From a virus, in the IMG/VR virus record IMGVR_UViG_3300020048_003770, positions 32,001 through 96,000 of that record: 64,000 nt of DNA, one strand, 5' to 3'. A program made the translations under genes and the position numbers. Positions 14,520-40,406 of this stretch are shown in pieces (the stretch's first letter is position 1; each line of letters starts with the position of its first letter). The notes beneath the pieces were generated by a model, which made no database searches, was not told the DNA's origin, and worked only from the letters and a program-made list of their open reading frames with translations.

Positions 14520-14609
14520 AAAATAGTTCTTGATTTTTAAAATATTTCTGTTACAATTGGAAAATAAATAAAGGAATATTTAACAGAAATATAGAAACTA
14601 GATTGGAAC

Positions 14610-14702
14610 ATGAATATGAACAAGCAAATAATAGGTATAGGAATAGCGGGAGCCTGCGGCGGAGCTGCAAGGCTACGGACTTTCTATGTCTGTTTATGCT
14701 AA
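14610..14702 (+). CDS. attenuator leader peptide MNMNKQIIGIGIAGACGGAARLRTFYVCLC
   Basis: short ORF after promoter motifs; its 3' part overlaps the antiterminator strand; codons 7-20 are 13/14 Ile/Gly/Ala. Confidence 0.7.
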   Translation: MNMNKQIIGIGIAGACGGAARLRTFYVCLC

Positions 14703-14765
14703 ATGATATAACAGATTAAAAAATAGAGAGTCCGATAAACTAATGGTTTGTCGGACTTTTGCTTT
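14676..14765 (+). promoter_or_regulatory. transcription attenuator 1 (antiterminator/terminator)
   Basis: cggactttcta(14676) pairs tagagagtccg(14724), and tctgtt pairs aacaga; mutually exclusive with terminator agagtccgataaac/gtttgtcggactttt plus T-rich tail. Confidence 0.75.
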
Positions 14766-26244: not shown

Positions 26245-26640
26245 ATGAAAATAGTAAAGACAGCATCAGGCAAACAAACAATAAAGATTTCCAAAAAAGA
26301 ATGGACATCTCTTGGTAAAAAAGCTGGTTGGATAAAAACGGCGACATCCAGTAGAGAAAAAGTGATGCATGATTTGAGATCTATCCTTGGCGATAAGGCT
26401 TTTATTAGACCAACTGAAGAATTTGATGGGACTCCAGACGGGATATGGTTCTCAAATGAAGAAGATGGTATTGACGGACTTCCAACATTTGATACCAATG
26501 GAGAAACGGAGATGCTCGCTAATTTCGGTATAGAAGCATATCCATATCAAGCTCACCCTAAACTCGAAGCTCTAATGAATAGTCATAATTGGTATATTGA
26601 ACCATATGACGGTGGAACATTAATGGCTTGGACAAGATAA
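26245..26640 (+). CDS. protein with conserved N-terminal KTASGK..EW..GKKAGW motif (paralog 1)
   Basis: shared ~33-aa N-terminus. Confidence 0.75.
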   Translation: MKIVKTASGKQTIKISKKEWTSLGKKAGWIKTATSSREKVMHDLRSILGDKAFIRPTEEFDGTPDGIWFSNEEDGIDGLPTFDTNGETEMLANFGIEAYPYQAHPKLEALMNSHNWYIEPYDGGTLMAWTR

Positions 26641-26655
26641 ATTCAAGGAGAATAT

Positions 26656-27174
26656 ATGAGAGTTACAAAAACAGCAAATAAATCAAAAATCACTTTGTCT
26701 CAAAAAGAATGGCAAAACATAGGTCAGAAAGCAGGATGGATGAAAACTGCTCAATTTGGTAGTGGAATGGAAACTGTCGAAATAGGTAGCACTCCAAACG
26801 ACGAACCATGCGCTCAAGTTGGATCAGATAACTATAGGCAACTAGCTCAAATGGAAATAAAAGCATTTGCAAAACAATGTCAAAGAATGTTCCCGAATAA
26901 GCCACAAGGTGCTAGATTCGTAGTAACTAATAACCCACACGATTTTGGTACTTATTATGAGTTAGGAGTAAAATTTAGAACGGATGATGAAGAAGCTGAA
27001 AATTATGCTTATGAAGTTCAAAATAGCATGCCTTCTAATTGGGATGATCAAGCGAGAGCAGAATTAGAACAACAAGGGTATTTTCAATTGTTAGATGGCA
27101 ATAAAGAAAATGATTCTGAGATGCCAGGTTTTGAAGGCACTAATGATTCTCTCAATAATTTAGGAATACGATAA
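26656..27174 (+). CDS. N-terminal-motif protein (paralog 2)
   Basis: MRVTKTANKSKITLSQKEWQNIGQKAGWMKTAQ; body has E.CAQVG..Y and PHDFGTYYE. Confidence 0.75.
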   Translation: MRVTKTANKSKITLSQKEWQNIGQKAGWMKTAQFGSGMETVEIGSTPNDEPCAQVGSDNYRQLAQMEIKAFAKQCQRMFPNKPQGARFVVTNNPHDFGTYYELGVKFRTDDEEAENYAYEVQNSMPSNWDDQARAELEQQGYFQLLDGNKENDSEMPGFEGTNDSLNNLGIR

Positions 27175-27176
27175 TT

Positions 27177-27719
27177 GTGAAAATAGTAAAAACAGCTAGT
27201 GGTAAGCAAAATATAAGATTGAGTAGAAGCGAATGGCAATCCATTGGAGAACGTGCTGGATGGATAAAAACAGCCAAACAGTATGAAGTCAGTTATTCTG
27301 TTGGTTTCTCCCCTGAAATAAAAAAGAAAACTGTTTTTGTCAATCCCTCCAAGCTTCCAGAAGGTGTTACAGAAAAAGATTTTATTGCTAAACAATTGAG
27401 CAAAAAAGAGGGGAAGAATGTAATTATAGTGAAATCAATACCGATAGGTTCTGTTAGTAAAAAGCATGGACCGAATGTAAAAGATTTGCAAAGGGCTCGT
27501 GGCGAAGAAATGAGGAAAGAACGCCAACGTATAAAAAACAGGGAAGACCATGAAAATTGGTTGAAACAGAAATTGAAAGAAAATGATTTGCCAGAAGATA
27601 TAGATGAGGAAAGAGCACTCCCATTGATTGAAGAATTCGAACAAGTTAAAGGATTGGGTGAAGAAGAAAAAGAACTTTCATTAATTGAACAATTGGAACG
27701 GAAAAAGAAAAACATATGA
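27177..27719 (+). CDS. N-terminal-motif protein (paralog 3)
   Basis: MKIVKTASGKQNIRLSRSEWQSIGERAGWIKTA. Confidence 0.75.
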   Translation: MKIVKTASGKQNIRLSRSEWQSIGERAGWIKTAKQYEVSYSVGFSPEIKKKTVFVNPSKLPEGVTEKDFIAKQLSKKEGKNVIIVKSIPIGSVSKKHGPNVKDLQRARGEEMRKERQRIKNREDHENWLKQKLKENDLPEDIDEERALPLIEEFEQVKGLGEEEKELSLIEQLERKKKNI

Positions 27720-28129
27720 AAATAACTAAAACAGCAAGCGGTAAACAAACGATTAAGATTTCCAAGAAAGAATGGGCAAGTATTGGTAAAAAAGCGGGTT
27801 GGTTGGATGGAGACGTTATGAAAGTTGTAAAAGAAGACATTCAGTATCAAGCCGCTCCATATGGTTATATCGCTACTATACCAAAAGGAACCGCCGTTGT
27901 ACCTGCATCTAATCTAGAGATGGGTGGATATTGGGCTGAAGAGTGGGATGGAATGGACGAAAAGGCAAGATCATGGTTGGATAATTATGGCTTTCATCTT
28001 TTAGAAAGCGATGTCGAAGATGTTGACGATACTTATCACTCAGAACCTAATCACCAAGATGTTTTAGATAGAAGAGCGGATGCAGAAGATGAGGCGGAAT
28101 ATAATAAATGGATGTCAGAACGAGGATAA
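27716..28129 (+). CDS. N-terminal-motif protein (paralog 4)
   Basis: MKITKTASGKQTIKISKKEWASIGKKAGW. Confidence 0.75.
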   Translation: MKITKTASGKQTIKISKKEWASIGKKAGWLDGDVMKVVKEDIQYQAAPYGYIATIPKGTAVVPASNLEMGGYWAEEWDGMDEKARSWLDNYGFHLLESDVEDVDDTYHSEPNHQDVLDRRADAEDEAEYNKWMSERG

Positions 28130-28209
28130 TTATTTAAAATAGTTCTTGATTTTAAAACAGAACAAGCCCTTGACATACTCCCCATGAATAAATTCAGGGG
28201 ATTCTAGGC

Positions 28210-29382
28210 TCAAGCGAGGGCAGCTTGACTCACGTCAAGTCTGACACCCTCTCGCCAGCAGGATGATGTCCCATCCTTTAAATCATTTAAACCTCTCTTA
28301 ACTATATTTATAGCTGCGTTCATATCTCTATTATGAGAAGTCAAACACTCAGGACAAACCCACTCTCTATCTTTTTGAGTTAATTCATTGTTCTTATATC
28401 CACAGGAACTGCATGTTTTCGTACTGGCAAACCATTTATCAATATGGTGAATAATTTTTCCATATTCCAAAGCTTTATTTTCCAATATTCCCATGAAATT
28501 AGAAAATCCAAGATCATTTATCTTCTTCCCATGTTCTTTTTTCATTGAACTGATATCCAAAGTTTCAAAAAACATAACATCATAAGTTTCACATAATTGT
28601 TTTGCAAGTTTGAAATGATAATCTAATCTTTTATTTGCAACTTTCTTATGTAATTTAGCCAATTGATGTTTTGCTTGTTGGTAATTATTTGAACCTTCAG
28701 TCTTTCTTGATAATGTCTTGTTCGCTTTGGATATCTTGTTTCTATTTTGTTTGAAAAATAGTGGAGCTTTTATTTTGGTTCCATCATCTTTAACTAGAAA
28801 ATCCGTACATCCGAAATCAAAGCCTGCGGTTTCACCCGTCATGGAAATTAATTCAGAATCATTTTCTAATTCGCAAACAATATAAACATACCAATCCTCT
28901 GATTTATCTTTTTTAAGTGTAATGCATTTTATTTCTCCTTTTGTTTCTCTTGATTTCCAGTATTTGTAAATTCTGTTATTTATTTTGATTTGGTTGAACG
29001 GCAATATTTTGTATCCATCTTGTTTGAAGGTAATGCTTGCATAGGATCTAACTTTTTTGAATGATGGAGGGCTTACTTTTCTAGTTTTGTTTTTCTTTTT
29101 GCAATTATCAAAGAATGCCTTGTATCCTTTTTGGATTCTATCTGTAATTTCTTGAATAGCTTGAGCGTTTACTTTTTTCCAGAATGAATATTTTTCTAAT
29201 TTTTTCAGTTTTGTGATATGTTTTTGGAGTTGAAATTTATTGAGGGATTTTCCGAATAGTTTGTAATATCTATAGTGGAGAGCGATGCAGTGGTTATAGA
29301 TATTGCCTGCTATTTTGGTTTGTTCATTCAGGAATTTGTTTTTCTTTGAATGATATAATTTATATTTGAATGTCTTTATCAT
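28210..29382 (-). CDS. tnpB: RNA-guided endonuclease TnpB
   Basis: KTFKYKLY HTH start; RuvC GFDFG / FFETLD / RDMNAAINI; zinc ribbon CSSCG..CPEC. Confidence 0.95.
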   Translation of the reverse strand: MIKTFKYKLYHSKKNKFLNEQTKIAGNIYNHCIALHYRYYKLFGKSLNKFQLQKHITKLKKLEKYSFWKKVNAQAIQEITDRIQKGYKAFFDNCKKKNKTRKVSPPSFKKVRSYASITFKQDGYKILPFNQIKINNRIYKYWKSRETKGEIKCITLKKDKSEDWYVYIVCELENDSELISMTGETAGFDFGCTDFLVKDDGTKIKAPLFFKQNRNKISKANKTLSRKTEGSNNYQQAKHQLAKLHKKVANKRLDYHFKLAKQLCETYDVMFFETLDISSMKKEHGKKINDLGFSNFMGILENKALEYGKIIHHIDKWFASTKTCSSCGYKNNELTQKDREWVCPECLTSHNRDMNAAINIVKRGLNDLKDGTSSCWREGVRLDVSQAALA

Positions 29383-29539
29383 TATCTTTTAGAACCTTGA
29401 GGTATTTTTTCAGGAACATTTTAAATGCGCCTGAAATATTTATGGCGTAATTATTTTTAAGTTCTTCCATGGCGTCGAAGTCTTCTTGATTTAATCTGAA
29501 GGCATATGGGTATTGTTTTTTAACATAATTATTTTTCAT
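29360..29539 (-). CDS. small ribbon-helix-helix-like DNA-binding protein (59 aa, not in ORF track)
   Basis: MKNNYVKKQYPYAFRLNQEDFDAMEELKNNYAINISGAFKMFLKKYL..; overlaps the tnpB start. Confidence 0.6.
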   Translation of the reverse strand: MKNNYVKKQYPYAFRLNQEDFDAMEELKNNYAINISGAFKMFLKKYLKVLKDNDKDIQI

Positions 29540-29682
29540 GTTTATTTATTCAATACTTTTCAAATAATTCCTTTATTTGTAAATGAGAAAATAATTTAAA
29601 ATAGTTCTTGATTATTAAAAGGAGTTATGTATAATGATTAGGAACATTAAATAGATTCGAGATTTGGAGAAGGAATAAAATT

Positions 29683-29760
29683 ATGTATATTAAAACGAAA
29701 ACAGTAGAAAAAGCAACGGTATTCAAAAAAACCGTTATGGGCTTATTCTGTTTTGTTTAA
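29683..29760 (+). CDS. attenuator leader peptide MYIKTKTVEKATVFKKTVMGLFCFV
   Basis: AAGGA RBS after a TTGATT-N17-TATAAT promoter; codons 4-18 are 12/15 Lys/Thr/Val. Confidence 0.75.
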   Translation: MYIKTKTVEKATVFKKTVMGLFCFV

Positions 29761-29810
29761 GTACAAAATAGATTTTTAAAAGCCCGTAAGTGTTACTTGC
29801 GGGCTTTTTT
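29739..29810 (+). promoter_or_regulatory. transcription attenuator 2 (antiterminator/terminator)
   Basis: gggctt..tctgttttgt pairs acaaaataga..aagccc; mutually exclusive with terminator aaaagcccgtaag/cttgcgggctttttt. Confidence 0.8.
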
Positions 29811-29847
29811 GTTTTATTTAATGGTAATTTGGGGGATAGAATAAAAT

Positions 29848-29922
29848 GGAAGTGTAGTTCAACGGTAGAACAACGGTCTTTTAAACCGTGAAATGATGGT
29901 TCGATTCCATCCACTTCTACCA
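29848..29922 (+). tRNA. tRNA-Lys(UUU)
   Basis: acggt-cttttaa-accgt; cloverleaf; CCA. Confidence 0.92.
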
Positions 29923-29964
29923 TTTTTAAAGGAAACGATAAGAAGGAATATGATATAATATAAT

Positions 29965-30038
29965 GGGCGATTAGTTCAATGGTAGAACTCTGTCTTTACA
30001 CGGCAGTTACGGGAGTTCGATTCTCTCATCGCCTACCA
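29965..30038 (+). tRNA. tRNA-Val(UAC)
   Basis: ctgtc-tttacac-ggcag; CCA. Confidence 0.92.
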
Positions 30039-30062
30039 TTTTAAAAAAGAAAGGGAGTTGTA

Positions 30063-30242
30063 ATGAAAATATTAAATGTAGATACTAAGATCCACGAAGC
30101 GATAGGAATGACTATATTGACGAAAGAAGATGTCGCTAGCAGAAGATTGGGAGAACCTATGGAGATATGGCCGAAAGACTGTTCATTTAATCCATCGGGA
30201 ATCTCTTTGGAAGAAGCTAGAGGAGCAATGAGGAAAATGTAA
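30063..30242 (+). CDS. small hypothetical protein (59 aa)
   Basis: GGGAG RBS; MKILNVDTKIHEAIG.. Confidence 0.45.
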   Translation: MKILNVDTKIHEAIGMTILTKEDVASRRLGEPMEIWPKDCSFNPSGISLEEARGAMRKM

Positions 30243-30297
30243 AGAACATAGAGGGGAGAAGGTTGTAGTTGAAGAAATTAAAACATTATTTAAAAAC

Positions 30298-30373
30298 GCC
30301 GGTTTAGCTCAGTTGGTAGAGCAATAGTTTTGTAAACTATAGGTCGTCGGATCGTACCCGTCAACCGGCTCCA
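30298..30373 (+). tRNA. tRNA-Thr(UGU)
   Basis: atagt-tttgtaa-actat; CCA. Confidence 0.92.
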
Positions 30374-30382
30374 TTTTTTAAT

Positions 30383-30458
30383 GCCACCATAGCTCAGTTG
30401 GTAGAGCAATAGTTTCGTAAACTTTAGGTCGCAGGTTCGATGCTTGCTGGTGGCTCCA
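30383..30458 (+). tRNA. tRNA-Thr(CGU)
   Basis: anticodon loop ttcgtaa; gccacca/tggtggc; CCA. Confidence 0.9.
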
Positions 30459-30497: not shown

Positions 30498-31264
30498 GAT
30501 GGTATGGCGGAAAATGGTTATGCGCCTTACTTATTTTTATATTTATAAAGGATTTTTATTTTGTTTATAGAATAAATATTTATGAATGAAATAAAAATAG
30601 AAAATATTCAAAAATATTATAATGACGGACATTCTTGGAGAGAAGTAATTGAAGAATTCCATACGGGCTGGAAAACGATACAGAAACTAGTTAGAAGTGG
30701 GAAGTTGATTTCTAGAAGTTTATCTGAGAGTACTAAGCTGGCATATAAAATTGGGAAAATAGTAAAAGTGCATACAGAAGAAAGTAAGAAGCATCTATCG
30801 GCAATTGCAAAGAAAAGGGGATTGGGTGGCGATAGACCGAGTAAGCATATTGAATATAACGGCTTTAAATTATGTTCGACATATGAATTGAGAGTTGCAA
30901 AAATTTTAGATAAAAGTGAAATAAAATGGATAAAACCAAAAACTACGTTTGGGTGGACTGATTTAAATAACGAAAAACACACATACCATCCGGACTTTTT
31001 TTTGCCGGATTTTAATGTCTATTTAGATCCGAAAAACAGTTATTGCATAGAAAGAGATAAAGAAAAAATTAAAAGGGTTAGAATGGAGAATATGGTTAGC
31101 GTTTTTATTATTCCGATAGAAGTTATAAAAAAATGGGAAAATAAAATAATAATAAGCATACAAGATATAAATCAAGATACGGAAGGTTTGTAGTTCTAAG
31201 GTGAAGGACATATGTCAAAATTTGTAATAAGAACTATGGGGTTTCGATACCTCTGCCGGCTCCA
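30498..31264 (+). pseudogene. tRNA-like gene split at the anticodon loop by an endonuclease ORF
   Basis: 5' half gatggtatggcggaaaatggttatgcgccttactt; 3' half gatacggaagg..ggggtttcgatacctctgccggctcca. Confidence 0.55.
30582..31193 (+). CDS. putative homing endonuclease (NUMOD3-like plus PD-(D/E)xK)
   Basis: HTEESKKHLS; STYELRVA..YHPDFFL..YLDPKN. Confidence 0.75.
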   Translation: MNEIKIENIQKYYNDGHSWREVIEEFHTGWKTIQKLVRSGKLISRSLSESTKLAYKIGKIVKVHTEESKKHLSAIAKKRGLGGDRPSKHIEYNGFKLCSTYELRVAKILDKSEIKWIKPKTTFGWTDLNNEKHTYHPDFFLPDFNVYLDPKNSYCIERDKEKIKRVRMENMVSVFIIPIEVIKKWENKIIISIQDINQDTEGL

Positions 31265-38096: not shown

Positions 38097-38200
38097 ATAC
38101 GCTAAAAGAACAGATTCAAGATGACGTACTCCATCGGCTAAAGCACAATGGTTTCTTACTCCCATTAATGCTATAACTTAGGATTTCAATTTTCATGACA

Positions 38201-39487
38201 TCAAACGCTTTCTCTTTCAAGATCACGTCTGAAGGATAAATTGATATTTGGTTTATACTTCACCCCAAATATCAATGGAAGCGTCATTCTTCCTATTACG
38301 TCCAAACTATAAAGCCCAAACGATACTTGCGATGCACTTTCATTAATATATAAATTGTATATGTTAATAGCACCAACTCCATCCCTGTCAAAAACAAATC
38401 CACATTTATCACATTTGAAAACTCTTCCTTTCGGAGAAGATTCCTTAATATGATTGCAACTAGGACATGTTCTCGATGTGTTGTATTCTGGAATAATTTC
38501 ACATTTCCCACCAACACTCTCAAATTTATACCTGATATATTCCTTTAACTTCTGTTCAGGATTTTGCGTTATTTTCTGGTTATTCGCTTTCCCTAAATTC
38601 GTATCCTTGTGAGTACTTGAATTATTTCCAATAACAATTGTATTTATATTGTTTCCAATAGCATCATTGACAATTCTTCTTGCATATTTATGAAGAATAT
38701 CTTTTTCTTTGTTCTTTATCTTTTTCACATTACTTCTATATGCTCTTTTAAGATATTTCCTTCGTCTTGATTCCTTCCCGGCATTTGCATATTTGGATTG
38801 AGTTTTTGCCAATAATTTATTCCTCAATTTTCCTAATGCAAGAAACTCCTTACCTGAATATGTGTTTATTGCGTCAGGAGTGCATGTTGTGGCAATCCTT
38901 TTAACTCCTAAATCAATTGACATTACTTCTTCTGATTTGTTTATGGTATTTTGGAGTTTTGTATTGCAAACCATATTGATTTTCCAACCAGTGAAACAAT
39001 CATAGGAAATCGTTATGTATTTCGGAATTGGAAGATCGTCGCCCCACTTTATCTTGATTGGTTCAAATGGTTTCTTGACCGACAACAATAAATACCCATT
39101 TCGTCTTCTAATCGCTTCCTCTTTGAATATAACAGATCTAAGATATTTTTCCTTATGTGGAGGTTTTGGTTGTCCTGTGAAATTAGATGGGTTTGCCTTA
39201 TATGCTTTTAATGCTTTCGTGAAATTTTTGAAATCGTTTATGTACGCTTCATAAGATCCTTGCAATGATTGGGCGATTAGGAATTTTGGTTTATAAGTAT
39301 TGTAAATGGTTTTCCCAATAGCCTTGAAATCATTTCCTTCCGAATGAAGTTTCATAGCCATATTATATATCTCAGATGATTCATGGGACATATCGAATAT
39401 AAATGCGTTTGGTTTGTATGTCTGTGAATATGTTCTTGTATCATATTCCTTGACATTATCTATTTTTATATTGTCTTTTTTATACAT
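38201..39487 (-). CDS. tnpB: TnpB RNA-guided endonuclease
   Basis: SIDLGV, EYNTSRTCPSC..CDKC, DRDGVGAINI. Confidence 0.9.
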   Translation of the reverse strand: MYKKDNIKIDNVKEYDTRTYSQTYKPNAFIFDMSHESSEIYNMAMKLHSEGNDFKAIGKTIYNTYKPKFLIAQSLQGSYEAYINDFKNFTKALKAYKANPSNFTGQPKPPHKEKYLRSVIFKEEAIRRRNGYLLLSVKKPFEPIKIKWGDDLPIPKYITISYDCFTGWKINMVCNTKLQNTINKSEEVMSIDLGVKRIATTCTPDAINTYSGKEFLALGKLRNKLLAKTQSKYANAGKESRRRKYLKRAYRSNVKKIKNKEKDILHKYARRIVNDAIGNNINTIVIGNNSSTHKDTNLGKANNQKITQNPEQKLKEYIRYKFESVGGKCEIIPEYNTSRTCPSCNHIKESSPKGRVFKCDKCGFVFDRDGVGAINIYNLYINESASQVSFGLYSLDVIGRMTLPLIFGVKYKPNINLSFRRDLERESV

Positions 39488-39893
39488 TTTTCTGATCTTC
39501 TATATATTTCTTGACTATTTCCAATGATACGCTTCCAACGGTTGATATGAATTTTGATCTTGTCCATAACGTGGGGAGTCTGGATTTCAAATATGGGAAT
39601 TCCGATCTAAGTGTATTTGAAGTATATCCTTTGATTTTTGCGATTTGATTATTAATTCCTAGTTTTGGGTTGCAATCAATTAAGAGGTGAACGTGGTCTG
39701 GCATGATTTCTATTTCTATTATTTTGTATTGATATTCTGTTTGTTTTTCTAGGATAAGTTCTTTGAGTCGTTTTGCGATATTTTCGTCGAGGACTTTTCT
39801 TCTATATTTTGGGCAGAAGATAACGTGATATTGACATGAGTATACGGAGTTGCAGTCTTTGTTATATTCTTTATGGTTATTTACCAGTTCCAT
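39480..39893 (-). CDS. tnpA: Y1 transposase TnpA (IS200/IS605)
   Basis: YHVIFCPKYRR, MPDHVHLL (HUH), LWTRS, KKYIEDQ. Confidence 0.95.
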   Translation of the reverse strand: MELVNNHKEYNKDCNSVYSCQYHVIFCPKYRRKVLDENIAKRLKELILEKQTEYQYKIIEIEIMPDHVHLLIDCNPKLGINNQIAKIKGYTSNTLRSEFPYLKSRLPTLWTRSKFISTVGSVSLEIVKKYIEDQKNV

Positions 39894-40091
39894 TATATTT
39901 TCTCCTATTTATTACTTAACACAATATATTGTACAATAAAAGATAATGAAATTCCTTCTTGATTTTGAAAATATTTTTGTTATAATAAGAAAAATGGAAT
40001 AAGTATTGAAGATATTTGGTTTATAGTTGCGAAATTCATCCACGCGCTAAAGCATCGTGGTTCTCTTTCGAAAGTTCCTATAGAAAACAAA

Positions 40092-40406
40092 ATGAATAAC
40101 AGTTTAAAAGCAAGTTTTTGTGAACATTCAGATGAGTCTTCTGGTGTCGCTTATATTTGTTGGGGTGATTGTCAAAATTGGCATATTGGGTATATCCACC
40201 AAGAAGCAACTGAAATGTTTGGAGAGTCTGAAGTCGGGTCTCTTAAACGAGATGATAATCAGGTTTTATATTTTGAATTTTCAGATAATGTTGATTTTGT
40301 TGCTTTGGGAAATAAAATTGGCGTTAGACGGTCTACAATATCATGGTCAAGTTCTTCAGAGCGTCCTGTTCGAACATATGACCATAAAATAAAAAGGAAA
40401 TTATGA
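40092..40406 (+). CDS. hypothetical protein (possibly the 3' part of the IS-interrupted gene)
   Basis: ORF track. Confidence 0.45.
   Translation: MNNSLKASFCEHSDESSGVAYICWGDCQNWHIGYIHQEATEMFGESEVGSLKRDDNQVLYFEFSDNVDFVALGNKIGVRRSTISWSSSSERPVRTYDHKIKRKL

Follow-up and report, generated by a model that had tools for sequence, protein, structure and literature searches.

What does an intact TnpB nuclease do when it lacks the means of transposition and carries a guide for a site other than its own point of insertion? To our knowledge, the one site that TnpB has been found to cut is that from which its transposon has just departed, and the nuclease-dead relatives of TnpB are known as repressors. 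The question is raised by a locus in a 64,000-nucleotide stretch of viral DNA (hereafter the window), where a tnpB gene stands next to an attenuator-controlled tRNA operon and the predicted guide matches the attenuator's leader. The initial annotation of the locus proposed either a free-standing homing nuclease that cuts the allele of co-infecting relatives while sparing its own genome or a domesticated binder that regulates the tRNA operon. Judged by comparison with related sequences, the best reading is an RNA-guided, free-standing cassette for homing or marker exclusion with self-immunity, which we consider somewhat better than an even bet.

Make-up of the TnpB module

The tnpB gene (28210..29382, minus strand) encodes a full-length protein of 390 aa that matches the Pfam family OrfB_IS605 and the Cas12f1-like TNB domain (E-values of 2e-20 and 4e-20). 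Its residues D189, E273, and D353 align with D191, E278, and D361 of ISDra2, in agreement with the annotation of all three acidic residues as intact, and the RuvC triad is thus complete; the zinc finger (CxxC..CxxC) is present as well. The protein is 92% identical to the TnpB of a complete, TnpA-bearing IS, and the DNA of the gene is about 91% identical to that of L009, a copy of the CTAC type. The right end and the omegaRNA scaffold (28170..28330, minus strand) overlap the 3' end of tnpB. In IS608, the right end consists of GAAT, an imperfect hairpin, and a TCAA located 10 nt 3' of the hairpin foot (PMC3201880). The same order is found here, with GAAT followed by a hairpin at 28200..28180 and by 10 nt that close with TCAA at 28173..28170 (the span from GAAT to TCAA being 28204..28170 on the minus strand). 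Among more than 10 related copies, similarity stops directly past a terminal GTATGTCA followed by A or C, which fixes the guide boundary and upholds both the annotated right end in TCAA at 28170 and the reading of the guide as the reverse complement of 28154-28169. The predicted 16-nt omegaRNA guide, GGGCTTGTTCTGTTTT (28154..28169, minus strand), is the DNA that flanks the right end and is identical in all carriers, which comprise three backbones (the window's phage, L041, and L022/L023). The consensus fold of the omegaRNA scaffold, derived from seven sequences, has three stems with eight pairs that show compensatory changes; no Rfam family was found to cover it.

The place of tnpA is taken by an Arc/RHH-like ORF of 59 aa (29360..29539, minus strand), which overlaps the tnpB start by 23 nt and is a conserved partner of TnpB in L015 and L016-18. 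A weak match to DUF6290 (E = 0.035) was obtained for two of four homologues, and the AF2 monomer model, which is of low confidence (pLDDT 58), contains two helices (residues 18-30 and 37-54). The gene annotated upstream of tnpB thus exists as a small ORF, and its assignment to the RHH family is tentative. It resembles the Arc of IS605 elements, a small RHH-like protein beside tnpB that represses the element promoter (bioRxiv 10.64898/2026.09.24.754181), and by this analogy the protein probably represses the promoter of the module. The Arc that has been studied, however, accompanies TnpA and is often encoded divergently from tnpB, whereas the gene described here replaces tnpA and overlaps the start of tnpB. 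No Y1 tnpA lies within the element. The phage's only Y1 tnpA (39480-39893) belongs to a separate complete IS at 38.1-40.1 kb, 10 kb off, and shares 54% identity with the cognate type; the earlier statement that tnpA is absent therefore holds for the element and fails for the phage.

Upstream of the RHH-like gene, an element-derived region (29540..29597, minus strand) retains similarity to IS relatives that stops within a phage promoter, here called promoter B, and the DNA to the right of this promoter is homologous to that of the element-free relative L044. Past this region, a search for a left-end hairpin, motif, or TAM found none. The complete IS608-type left end (TAM, 18-20 nt, guide tetranucleotide, and hairpin) is present in relatives and absent in the window. 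By its sequence, the module is an IS608-type element from which the transposase gene and the left end have been lost, and it would no longer be able to transpose; since the left-end hairpin and motif are absent, recombination would be its only route of spread.

Two promoter copies border the element. Promoter A (28125..28157, plus strand) consists of an UP element and a -35 box (TTGATT, 28146-28151) without a -10 box, and the right end of the element adjoins the place where this -10 should stand. It is identical over 20 nt to the promoter of L044 and is a candidate left homology arm. Promoter B (29587..29635, plus strand; -35 at 29608-29613 and -10 at 29630-29635) is homologous to the L044 promoter. 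The possibility that promoter B is the element's own outward promoter was rejected because L044, which carries no element, has the same promoter, UTR, and leader; the comparison identifies promoter B as native phage DNA that would serve the leader and the tRNA operon. The 33-nt direct repeat formed by the two copies (28125-28157 and 29587-29619) was also considered as a specific duplication or a Campbell-type junction. This was rejected too, as the repeat represents two copies of a phage promoter consensus that occurs about 10 times, and these two are no closer to each other than any other pair.

The guide match in the attenuator leader

Promoter B is followed by a 25-codon leader ORF with many Lys, Thr, and Val codons (29683..29760, plus strand), by the intrinsic terminator of the attenuator (29778..29808, plus strand), and by the attenuator-controlled genes for tRNA-Lys(UUU), Val(UAC), Thr(UGU), and Thr(CGU) (29848..30458, plus strand). 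The last codons of the leader contain the self target, GGGCTTATTCTGTTTT (29739..29754, plus strand), which matches the guide in 15 of 16 positions. It lies on the opposite strand to the guide, about 200 bp from the element and 1.6 kb from the guide copy. The one mismatch is at guide position 7 (29745), where A stands instead of G; this transition alters the third base of a Leu codon (TTA for TTG, synonymous) and gives an rG:dT wobble pair. The match and the location of its mismatch at a Leu wobble base were both described correctly at the outset. The target is constrained by the coding of the leader as well as by the antiterminator and the inner hairpin, the 5' half of the terminator being able to pair alternatively with 29735-29745 (the TAM position and the start of the target). 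By analogy, such a constrained target is the kind of site that homing nucleases use.

A fortuitous resemblance between an AT-rich flank and the T-rich end of the leader could be invoked as each of the two looks like the 3' half of a terminator, with GGGC ahead of a T-rich run, and the next-best match to the guide in the genome, with two mismatches, is a terminator tail. We nevertheless regard this as extremely improbable. The target is the only match with at most one mismatch in the window and in the entire 161-kb genome, and it is found 1.6 kb away; by our own composition-based calculation, about 1e-4 such matches are expected within 2 kb, and among random 16-mers of the phage genome, 0.57% have such a partner within 2 kb, real repeats included. 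In addition, the homologous site of L044 carries the TAM of the family. For comparison, the guide of the window's second IS and those of 10 further copies of the IS family have no match with three or fewer mismatches in their own flanks. That none of the other RHH-TnpB family members examined has a guide aimed at a neighbouring site counts, in turn, against the homing reading.

The family TAM was read from nine independent left-end flanks: five have TTTAC and four have CTAC, and in every case the distance to the left hairpin is 18-20 nt. At the self site, the corresponding position reads TTAT (29735..29738, plus strand) and differs from both at the invariant last C. Because the family TAM is TTTAC or CTAC, the self TTAT is, on sequence grounds, a disabled TAM and not the TAM-like motif that it had been taken for. 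When the distance between TAM and cut reported for TnpB (PMC8612924) is applied, the predicted cut falls 15-21 nt downstream of the TAM, at 29753-29759.

These features also bear on the second role originally proposed, that of a domesticated regulator of the TldR type, in which TnpB and its omegaRNA would bind the leader of their own phage and tune transcription of the tRNA operon. TnpB-derived repressors do exist in phages (PMC10705468), and the target lies within a regulatory element of the adjacent operon. Like TldR, the module comprises a phage-borne, transposase-free TnpB relative whose guide matches an outside site near a regulated operon. In TldR, however, the RuvC domain is inactivated or truncated and the promoter targets are perfect and flanked by a TAM, whereas the present TnpB has an intact RuvC triad and an imperfect self site, which combines a non-consensus TAM with a seed mismatch at guide position 7. 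The site is moreover located 130 nt downstream of the promoter, inside the translated leader. We therefore set the domesticated binder aside as very improbable.

Alleles of the target site and the block shared by diverged phages

A single relative without the element, L044, was found. It shares promoter, leader, and tRNA operon with the window and is 84% identical overall. At the homologous position of its leader, CTAC is followed by GGGCTTGCTCTGTTTT, which matches the guide in 15 of 16 positions. L044 carries the TTG allele (G at position 7), as had been anticipated for relatives that lack the element, and this one genome is the extent of that confirmation. Its single mismatch is a C at position 8, again a transition, which gives an rU:dG wobble pair; a perfect 16/16 naive target was not seen in this one element-free relative. 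The mismatches of the self site and of L044 are thus both of the wobble type, and RNA-guided nucleases often tolerate wobble pairs. In the window's phage and in L041, the two carrier backbones whose sequence spans the self site, the alleles are TTAT and TTA (A at position 7). As the guide and L044 share G7, A7 is derived in the carriers, and as the guide and the carriers share T8, C8 is derived in L044. Over TAM and target, carriers and L044 differ at 4 of 20 nt, which equals the rate over the remaining leader (about 18%); drift alone could therefore account for the differences.

Further relatives were sought in several collections. L038, a relative of the upstream gene, was considered as an empty site and proved uninformative, as another paralogue follows the gene. 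No relative was found among public phage genomes, which yielded just tRNA matches and TnpB matches of at most 46% identity; the one relative that came from IMG/VR, L008, is weak and lacks synteny at the locus. Exact-pattern scans with the phage tRNA-Lys returned nothing from IMG/VR, the JGI metagenome collection, or the GTDB genomes, and a scan for the pattern of TAM and target returned a single unrelated chance match, L046.

A block at 28123..29762, the putative unit of homing or co-conversion, is nearly identical in the window and in L041, with one difference in 1640 nt. Outside the block, the two phages are 84% identical in the left flank, 65-84% in the right flank, and 88-94% in the backbone. 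The window and L022 show four differences over the 1299 nt of the block that are covered. The last site that separates the carrier allele from that of L044 is 29746, and the first difference between the window and L041 is 29763; the interval between them contains the predicted cut (29753-29759), and the right edge of the block lies 4-10 nt beyond this cut. The right edge rests on one lineage pair. L022 and L041 both show the left edge, which is counted once because they share the same allele of the upstream gene. Between the predicted cut and the element there are about 170 nt of homology, so many repairs would leave the element uncopied.

In the homing reading, a co-infection with a relative free of the cassette would allow TnpB and its omegaRNA to recognise CTAC or TTAC and the adjoining target in the relative's leader and to cut 15-21 nt downstream of the TAM. 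The break would be degraded and repaired from the carrier, with promoter A providing left homology and the sequence past the cut providing right homology, and a copy of the entire block (28123-29762) would thereby enter the recipient, in the manner of intronless homing by T4 SegF or SegG. The carrier would be spared by its broken TAM (TAC to TAT, with the antiterminator pair kept as U.G) and by the synonymous G to A change at position 7, of which the broken TAM is probably the main source of self-protection. Expression, cleavage, protection by these two changes, and TnpB cutting as the cause of the block's spread are what we infer from the comparisons. The homing nuclease of the original proposal gains from the TTG and CTAC of L044, from the TTAT and TTA of the carriers, and from the shared block. 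It has to be amended in that TTAT is a broken TAM and that L044 itself matches the guide in only 15 of 16 positions.

The same pattern of alleles, with a site predicted to be cuttable in L044 and disarmed in the carriers, would also be expected of a weapon, in which TnpB and its omegaRNA would cut the tRNA-operon leader of competing relatives and exclude them without passing on the cassette. Precedents exist for phage nucleases that damage competitors (PMC13565253). The near-identical block in diverged backbones speaks against this, for it shows movement of the cassette between genomes, and we consider the weapon without homing improbable; the two roles are not exclusive.

A more serious competitor, though still an unlikely one in our estimate, is that the locus is a fossil, left by a canonical insertion that was later rearranged. 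In this account, the IS would once have occupied the leader at YTAC|GGGCTTG..., from where its present flank would derive, and recombination would afterwards have moved and inverted it with loss of its left end; the guide would now be without a working target, and the block would reflect ordinary modular exchange at promoter boundaries. The leader of L044 is indeed a textbook insertion site of the IS608 type, with YTAC followed by the guide sequence, and the changes that separate the carrier site from L044 occur at no higher density than elsewhere in the leader. Shuffled left and right flanks in L016, L017, and L018 show that recombination is common at such IS copies, and the similarity between L044 and the window begins exactly at the promoter, which makes promoters mosaic boundaries in any case. 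Left unexplained by a fossil are the right edge of the block, which lies 4-10 nt from the predicted cut and not in the well-conserved tRNA genes, and the retention of exactly the 16 nt of a guide. The same holds for the intactness of tnpB, the omegaRNA, and the catalytic residues in at least three diverged backbones and for the two self-site changes, each of which is derived in the carriers and compatible with leader function. The homing reading, for its part, gives no account of how the 16-nt copy of the target arrived beside the right end. One speculative path would lead from an insertion in the leader through an inversion with a breakpoint at the guide end to recombination between an outward promoter of the element and a phage promoter.

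Known systems and implications

Homing by IS608-type TnpB (PMC8612924, PMC10690162) shares with the module the protein family, an omegaRNA that derives from the 3' end of tnpB and the right end, a guide that equals the right-end flank, a TAM that equals the target motif of TnpA, and, in the homing reading, the logic of a cut followed by repair from the element-bearing copy. The window's element differs in having neither tnpA nor a left end, and its predicted target is not its own vacated site but one 200 bp off on the other strand. This target would be met in the genomes of related phages, the carrier's copy being disarmed by the TAM change. The free-standing SegF, SegG, and Mob nucleases of T-even phages, known for intronless homing and for localized marker exclusion (PMC13565253), offer a parallel in lifestyle: a nuclease gene lies between conserved genes with a conserved cut site a few hundred bp away, self is spared through small differences, as is proposed for the carriers, markers are co-converted, and islands are common to diverged phages. 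In contrast to these enzymes, recognition is predicted to depend on a 16-nt RNA guide and a TAM and not on a protein, the nuclease is a RuvC-type TnpB and not a GIY-YIG or HNH enzyme, and the parallel is drawn from sequence comparison.

The locus thus presents an intact TnpB that has no means of transposition and a guide for a site elsewhere, together with comparative data that resemble a gene drive between phages. Whether the guide of this TnpB has been uncoupled from its own insertion site, so that an immobilised module homes or drives between phages and protects itself by a TAM mutation, is in our assessment about evenly balanced. If true, the module would be an intermediate between guides that equal the element's own flank and the CRISPR-like targeting of foreign DNA. 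If confirmed, it would give the free-standing homing endonucleases of the Seg/Mob type their first RNA-guided counterpart, and it would be a natural case of guide retargeting without a CRISPR array as well as a tangible example of self-immunity through the TAM. It would also provide a compact RNP built on a 390-aa protein with a predicted CTAC or TTAC TAM, and it would add a layer of selfish elements to the phage's unusual tRNA-operon attenuator.

Genomic setting and gene content of the element

The phage record, of which the window covers bases 32001-96000, is 161 kb long with a G+C content of 34%, and the phage genes near the locus are on the plus strand throughout. Four paralogous genes (26245-28129) precede a minus-strand insert, beyond which a promoter is followed by a short leader ORF, then a terminator and finally four tRNA genes. 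The products of the gene array share a conserved N-terminal segment of ~30 aa (MKI.KTASGK..I.ISKKEW...GKKAGW) with unrelated bodies, and paralogue number and order vary among related phages (window; L008, L019, L038, L039). Among the tRNA genes, a 203-aa ORF (30582-31193, plus strand) matches the phage endonuclease families PHROG 15137 and 945 and may encode another homing-type nuclease; different genes fill its position in the related contig L041 and in one further relative contig.

The insert contains tnpB (29382..28210, minus strand; 390 aa; Pfam OrfB_IS605 plus a Cas12f1-like TNB), which is preceded by a 59-aa ORF (29539..29360, minus strand) overlapping the tnpB start by 23 nt. An alignment with ISDra2 TnpB covers the full length of the protein; the zinc finger is present, and D189, E273, and D353 align with the catalytic D191, E278, and D361, which bears out the intact RuvC residues of the initial annotation. 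The tnpB 3' end and the DNA beyond it make up a three-stem RNA scaffold that is conserved, with compensatory changes at eight pairs (seven relatives). The right end consists of GAAT, an imperfect hairpin with a bulged T (28200..28180), and 10 nt finishing in TCAA (28173..28170), a layout that matches IS608 architecture (PMC3201880).

Close TnpB relatives (92% to 60% identity) are found in metagenomes, where the closest one (P0001, 92%) and another at 73% belong to complete elements, which have both a left end and a Y1 TnpA. The 59-aa gene recurrently takes the place of tnpA (L015, L016-18, L025-34), and most of these copies keep the left end; a search of the window element found neither a left-end hairpin nor a left-end motif. 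The sole Y1 transposase of the phage is encoded in another, complete IS (38.1-40.1 kb), whose TnpB is 25% identical to that of the window element. The reported lack of tnpA thus holds at the element, where the 59-aa ORF replaces it, but not phage-wide. Judged by its sequence, the element is unable to transpose. The 59-aa protein, initially called RHH, is probably an Arc-like repressor with a putative fold; an Arc repressor has recently been reported for IS605 elements (bioRxiv 10.64898/2026.09.24.754181).

The element (28170-29597) is mosaic. Its RHH gene, together with the DNA upstream of it, is ~85% identical to L015, an RHH-type copy, and tnpB with the omegaRNA shares ~91% DNA identity with the TnpA-type, CTAC-type copy L009. 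The RHH part is similar to TTTAC-type copies. The second IS (38100-40100, minus strand) is IS608-like, with Y1 TnpA at 39893..39480, a 428-aa TnpB at 39487..38201, a left hairpin near 40040-40060, and a right end stopping at ...GGAGTACGTCAT near 38121. Three copies with the same TnpB (P0011; L016, L017, L018) have two left and two right flanks in three combinations around identical elements, which places these IS copies at recombination points between genomes.

Guide, target, and TAM

In every readable copy that fixes the right boundary (L009-14, L015-18, L025-26, L029-30, L032, L034, L049, L050), similarity extends to ...GGGGAGTATGTCA[A/C] and is gone at the next base. The guide therefore begins at 28169, confirming the predicted GGGCTTGTTCTGTTTT. 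Its sole match with at most one mismatch, in the window and the whole genome, is GGGCTTATTCTGTTTT at 29739-29754 (plus strand), where position 7 (29745), the one mismatched base, falls on the wobble position of a TTA (Leu) codon of the leader ORF (29683-29760), as initially proposed. Base composition predicts ~1e-4 such matches within 2 kb by calculation; empirically, 0.57% of 6000 random 16-mers from the genome have such a partner at most 2 kb away, and those are real repeats. In the DNA available, no partner with up to three mismatches was found for the guides of 10 other family copies and of the second IS. The leader-derived stretch adjoining the right end (28152-28169) is exactly 15-16 nt, which matches both the TnpB guide length and the spacing to the cut in the non-target strand, a hint that the junction may have arisen from a TnpB cut or from a copy of processed omegaRNA.

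Of nine independent left-end flanks, five read TTTAC and four CTAC, in each case at 18-20 nt from the left hairpin. Ahead of this hairpin stands a tetranucleotide that co-varies with the flank (AAAG with TTTAC, AGTG with CTAC), as expected from IS608 biology (PMC3201880). An established rule equates the TAM of TnpB with the target motif of TnpA (PMC8612924), which predicts YTAC as the family TAM. The TTAT at 29735-29738, previously regarded as TAM-like, lacks the invariant final C.

An exchanged block and an element-free relative

Looking up the exact 59-aa protein and searching with neighbouring proteins yielded the relative contigs. L040, L042, and L043 represent the same phage as the window (99.99-100% identity); L022 and L023 have ~95% and L041 84-94% backbone identity. 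Element location and guide are identical in all of these carriers, and those reaching the leader (L040-43) have TTAT and A at position 7 (A7). L044 is 84% identical to the window phage and has no element. Its upstream gene is unrelated and without homologue in the window's genome, after which follow the same consensus promoter, UTR, Lys/Thr/Val-rich leader, terminator, and tRNA-Lys, Val, and Thr. The homologous leader site reads CTAC and then GGGCTTGCTCTGTTTT, i.e., a canonical TAM, the G7 of the guide, and a single mismatch at position 8; the TTG allele sought in element-free relatives is thus present in this one. With the guide as third witness, G7 is ancestral and A7 derived in carriers, and T8 is ancestral and C8 derived in L044.

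The end of the leader pairs with the terminator's 5' half as an antiterminator and its T-rich part gives an inner hairpin; both folds are also predicted in L044, so that coding and RNA structure constrain the target, which would make it a favourable one. In carriers, TAC-to-TAT replaces a C-G pair by U.G and Thr (ACG) by Met, and G7-to-A is synonymous; both are predicted to be compatible with leader function. Leader-peptide attenuators precede tRNA genes at 29683-29815 and 14616-14760; their codons match the downstream tRNAs and their last codons mimic the terminator 3' half. L044 keeps this design, and the terminator stem sequence differs per lineage.

Between the window and L041, a single base (28454) differs over 28123-29762, a block holding promoter copy A (28125-28157), the guide, the element, promoter B (29587-29635), the UTR, and the entire leader. 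Outside it, identity is 84% in the upstream gene, 65% in the terminator region, 84% in the tRNA region, and 88-94% in the farther backbone. L022 shows four differences in the 1299 nt of covered block against a backbone of 95%. This near-identity within diverged backbones indicates that the block was exchanged long after the backbones diverged. Its left edge (last difference 28122) coincides with the start of promoter copy A. In this copy the UP element and -35 from the ~10-copy consensus are present and the -10 is not, and 20 nt are identical to the L044 promoter. For the right edge, one lineage pair gives an interval from 29746 (last site distinguishing carriers from L044) to 29763 (first difference). 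The TnpB cleavage site is 15-21 nt away from its TAM (PMC8612924), and the cut predicted at the self site (29753-29759) falls inside this interval. The extended promoter consensus, AAAATAGTTCTTGAYT-N17-TATAAT, has ~10 copies genome-wide (in the window at 14520, 17318, 28136, 29598, and 34364(-)), and an outward-facing promoter near the left end of IS relatives (e.g., L028, L031) has the same extended -35.

A candidate homing cassette

The simplest account, which we moderately favor, is that the module would be an RNA-guided free-standing homing (marker-exclusion) cassette. Consistent with this initial proposal, element-free L044 has the TAM and G7, carriers have A7 and, at the TAM position, the non-consensus TTAT, and the block moved; against it, the only non-carrier relative, L044, itself matches the guide at 15/16. 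Furthermore, the density of differences in the TAM and target does not exceed that of the remaining leader, and both mismatches form wobble pairs. The main rival is a rather less probable explanation: the element would be the relic of a canonical insertion that once sat in the leader and was rearranged later, and ordinary modular recombination would have spread the block. The alternative initial reading, a domesticated regulator of the TldR kind, is unlikely, given the intact RuvC and the imperfect self site. Literature searches turned up work on TnpB transposon homing, TldR, Arc, and phage-borne tnpB copies, and no description of a phage TnpB that has an off-site guide and acts as a free-standing homing nuclease. 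As a homing cassette, the window module would be analogous to the free-standing homing of T4 SegF/SegG (PMC13565253).
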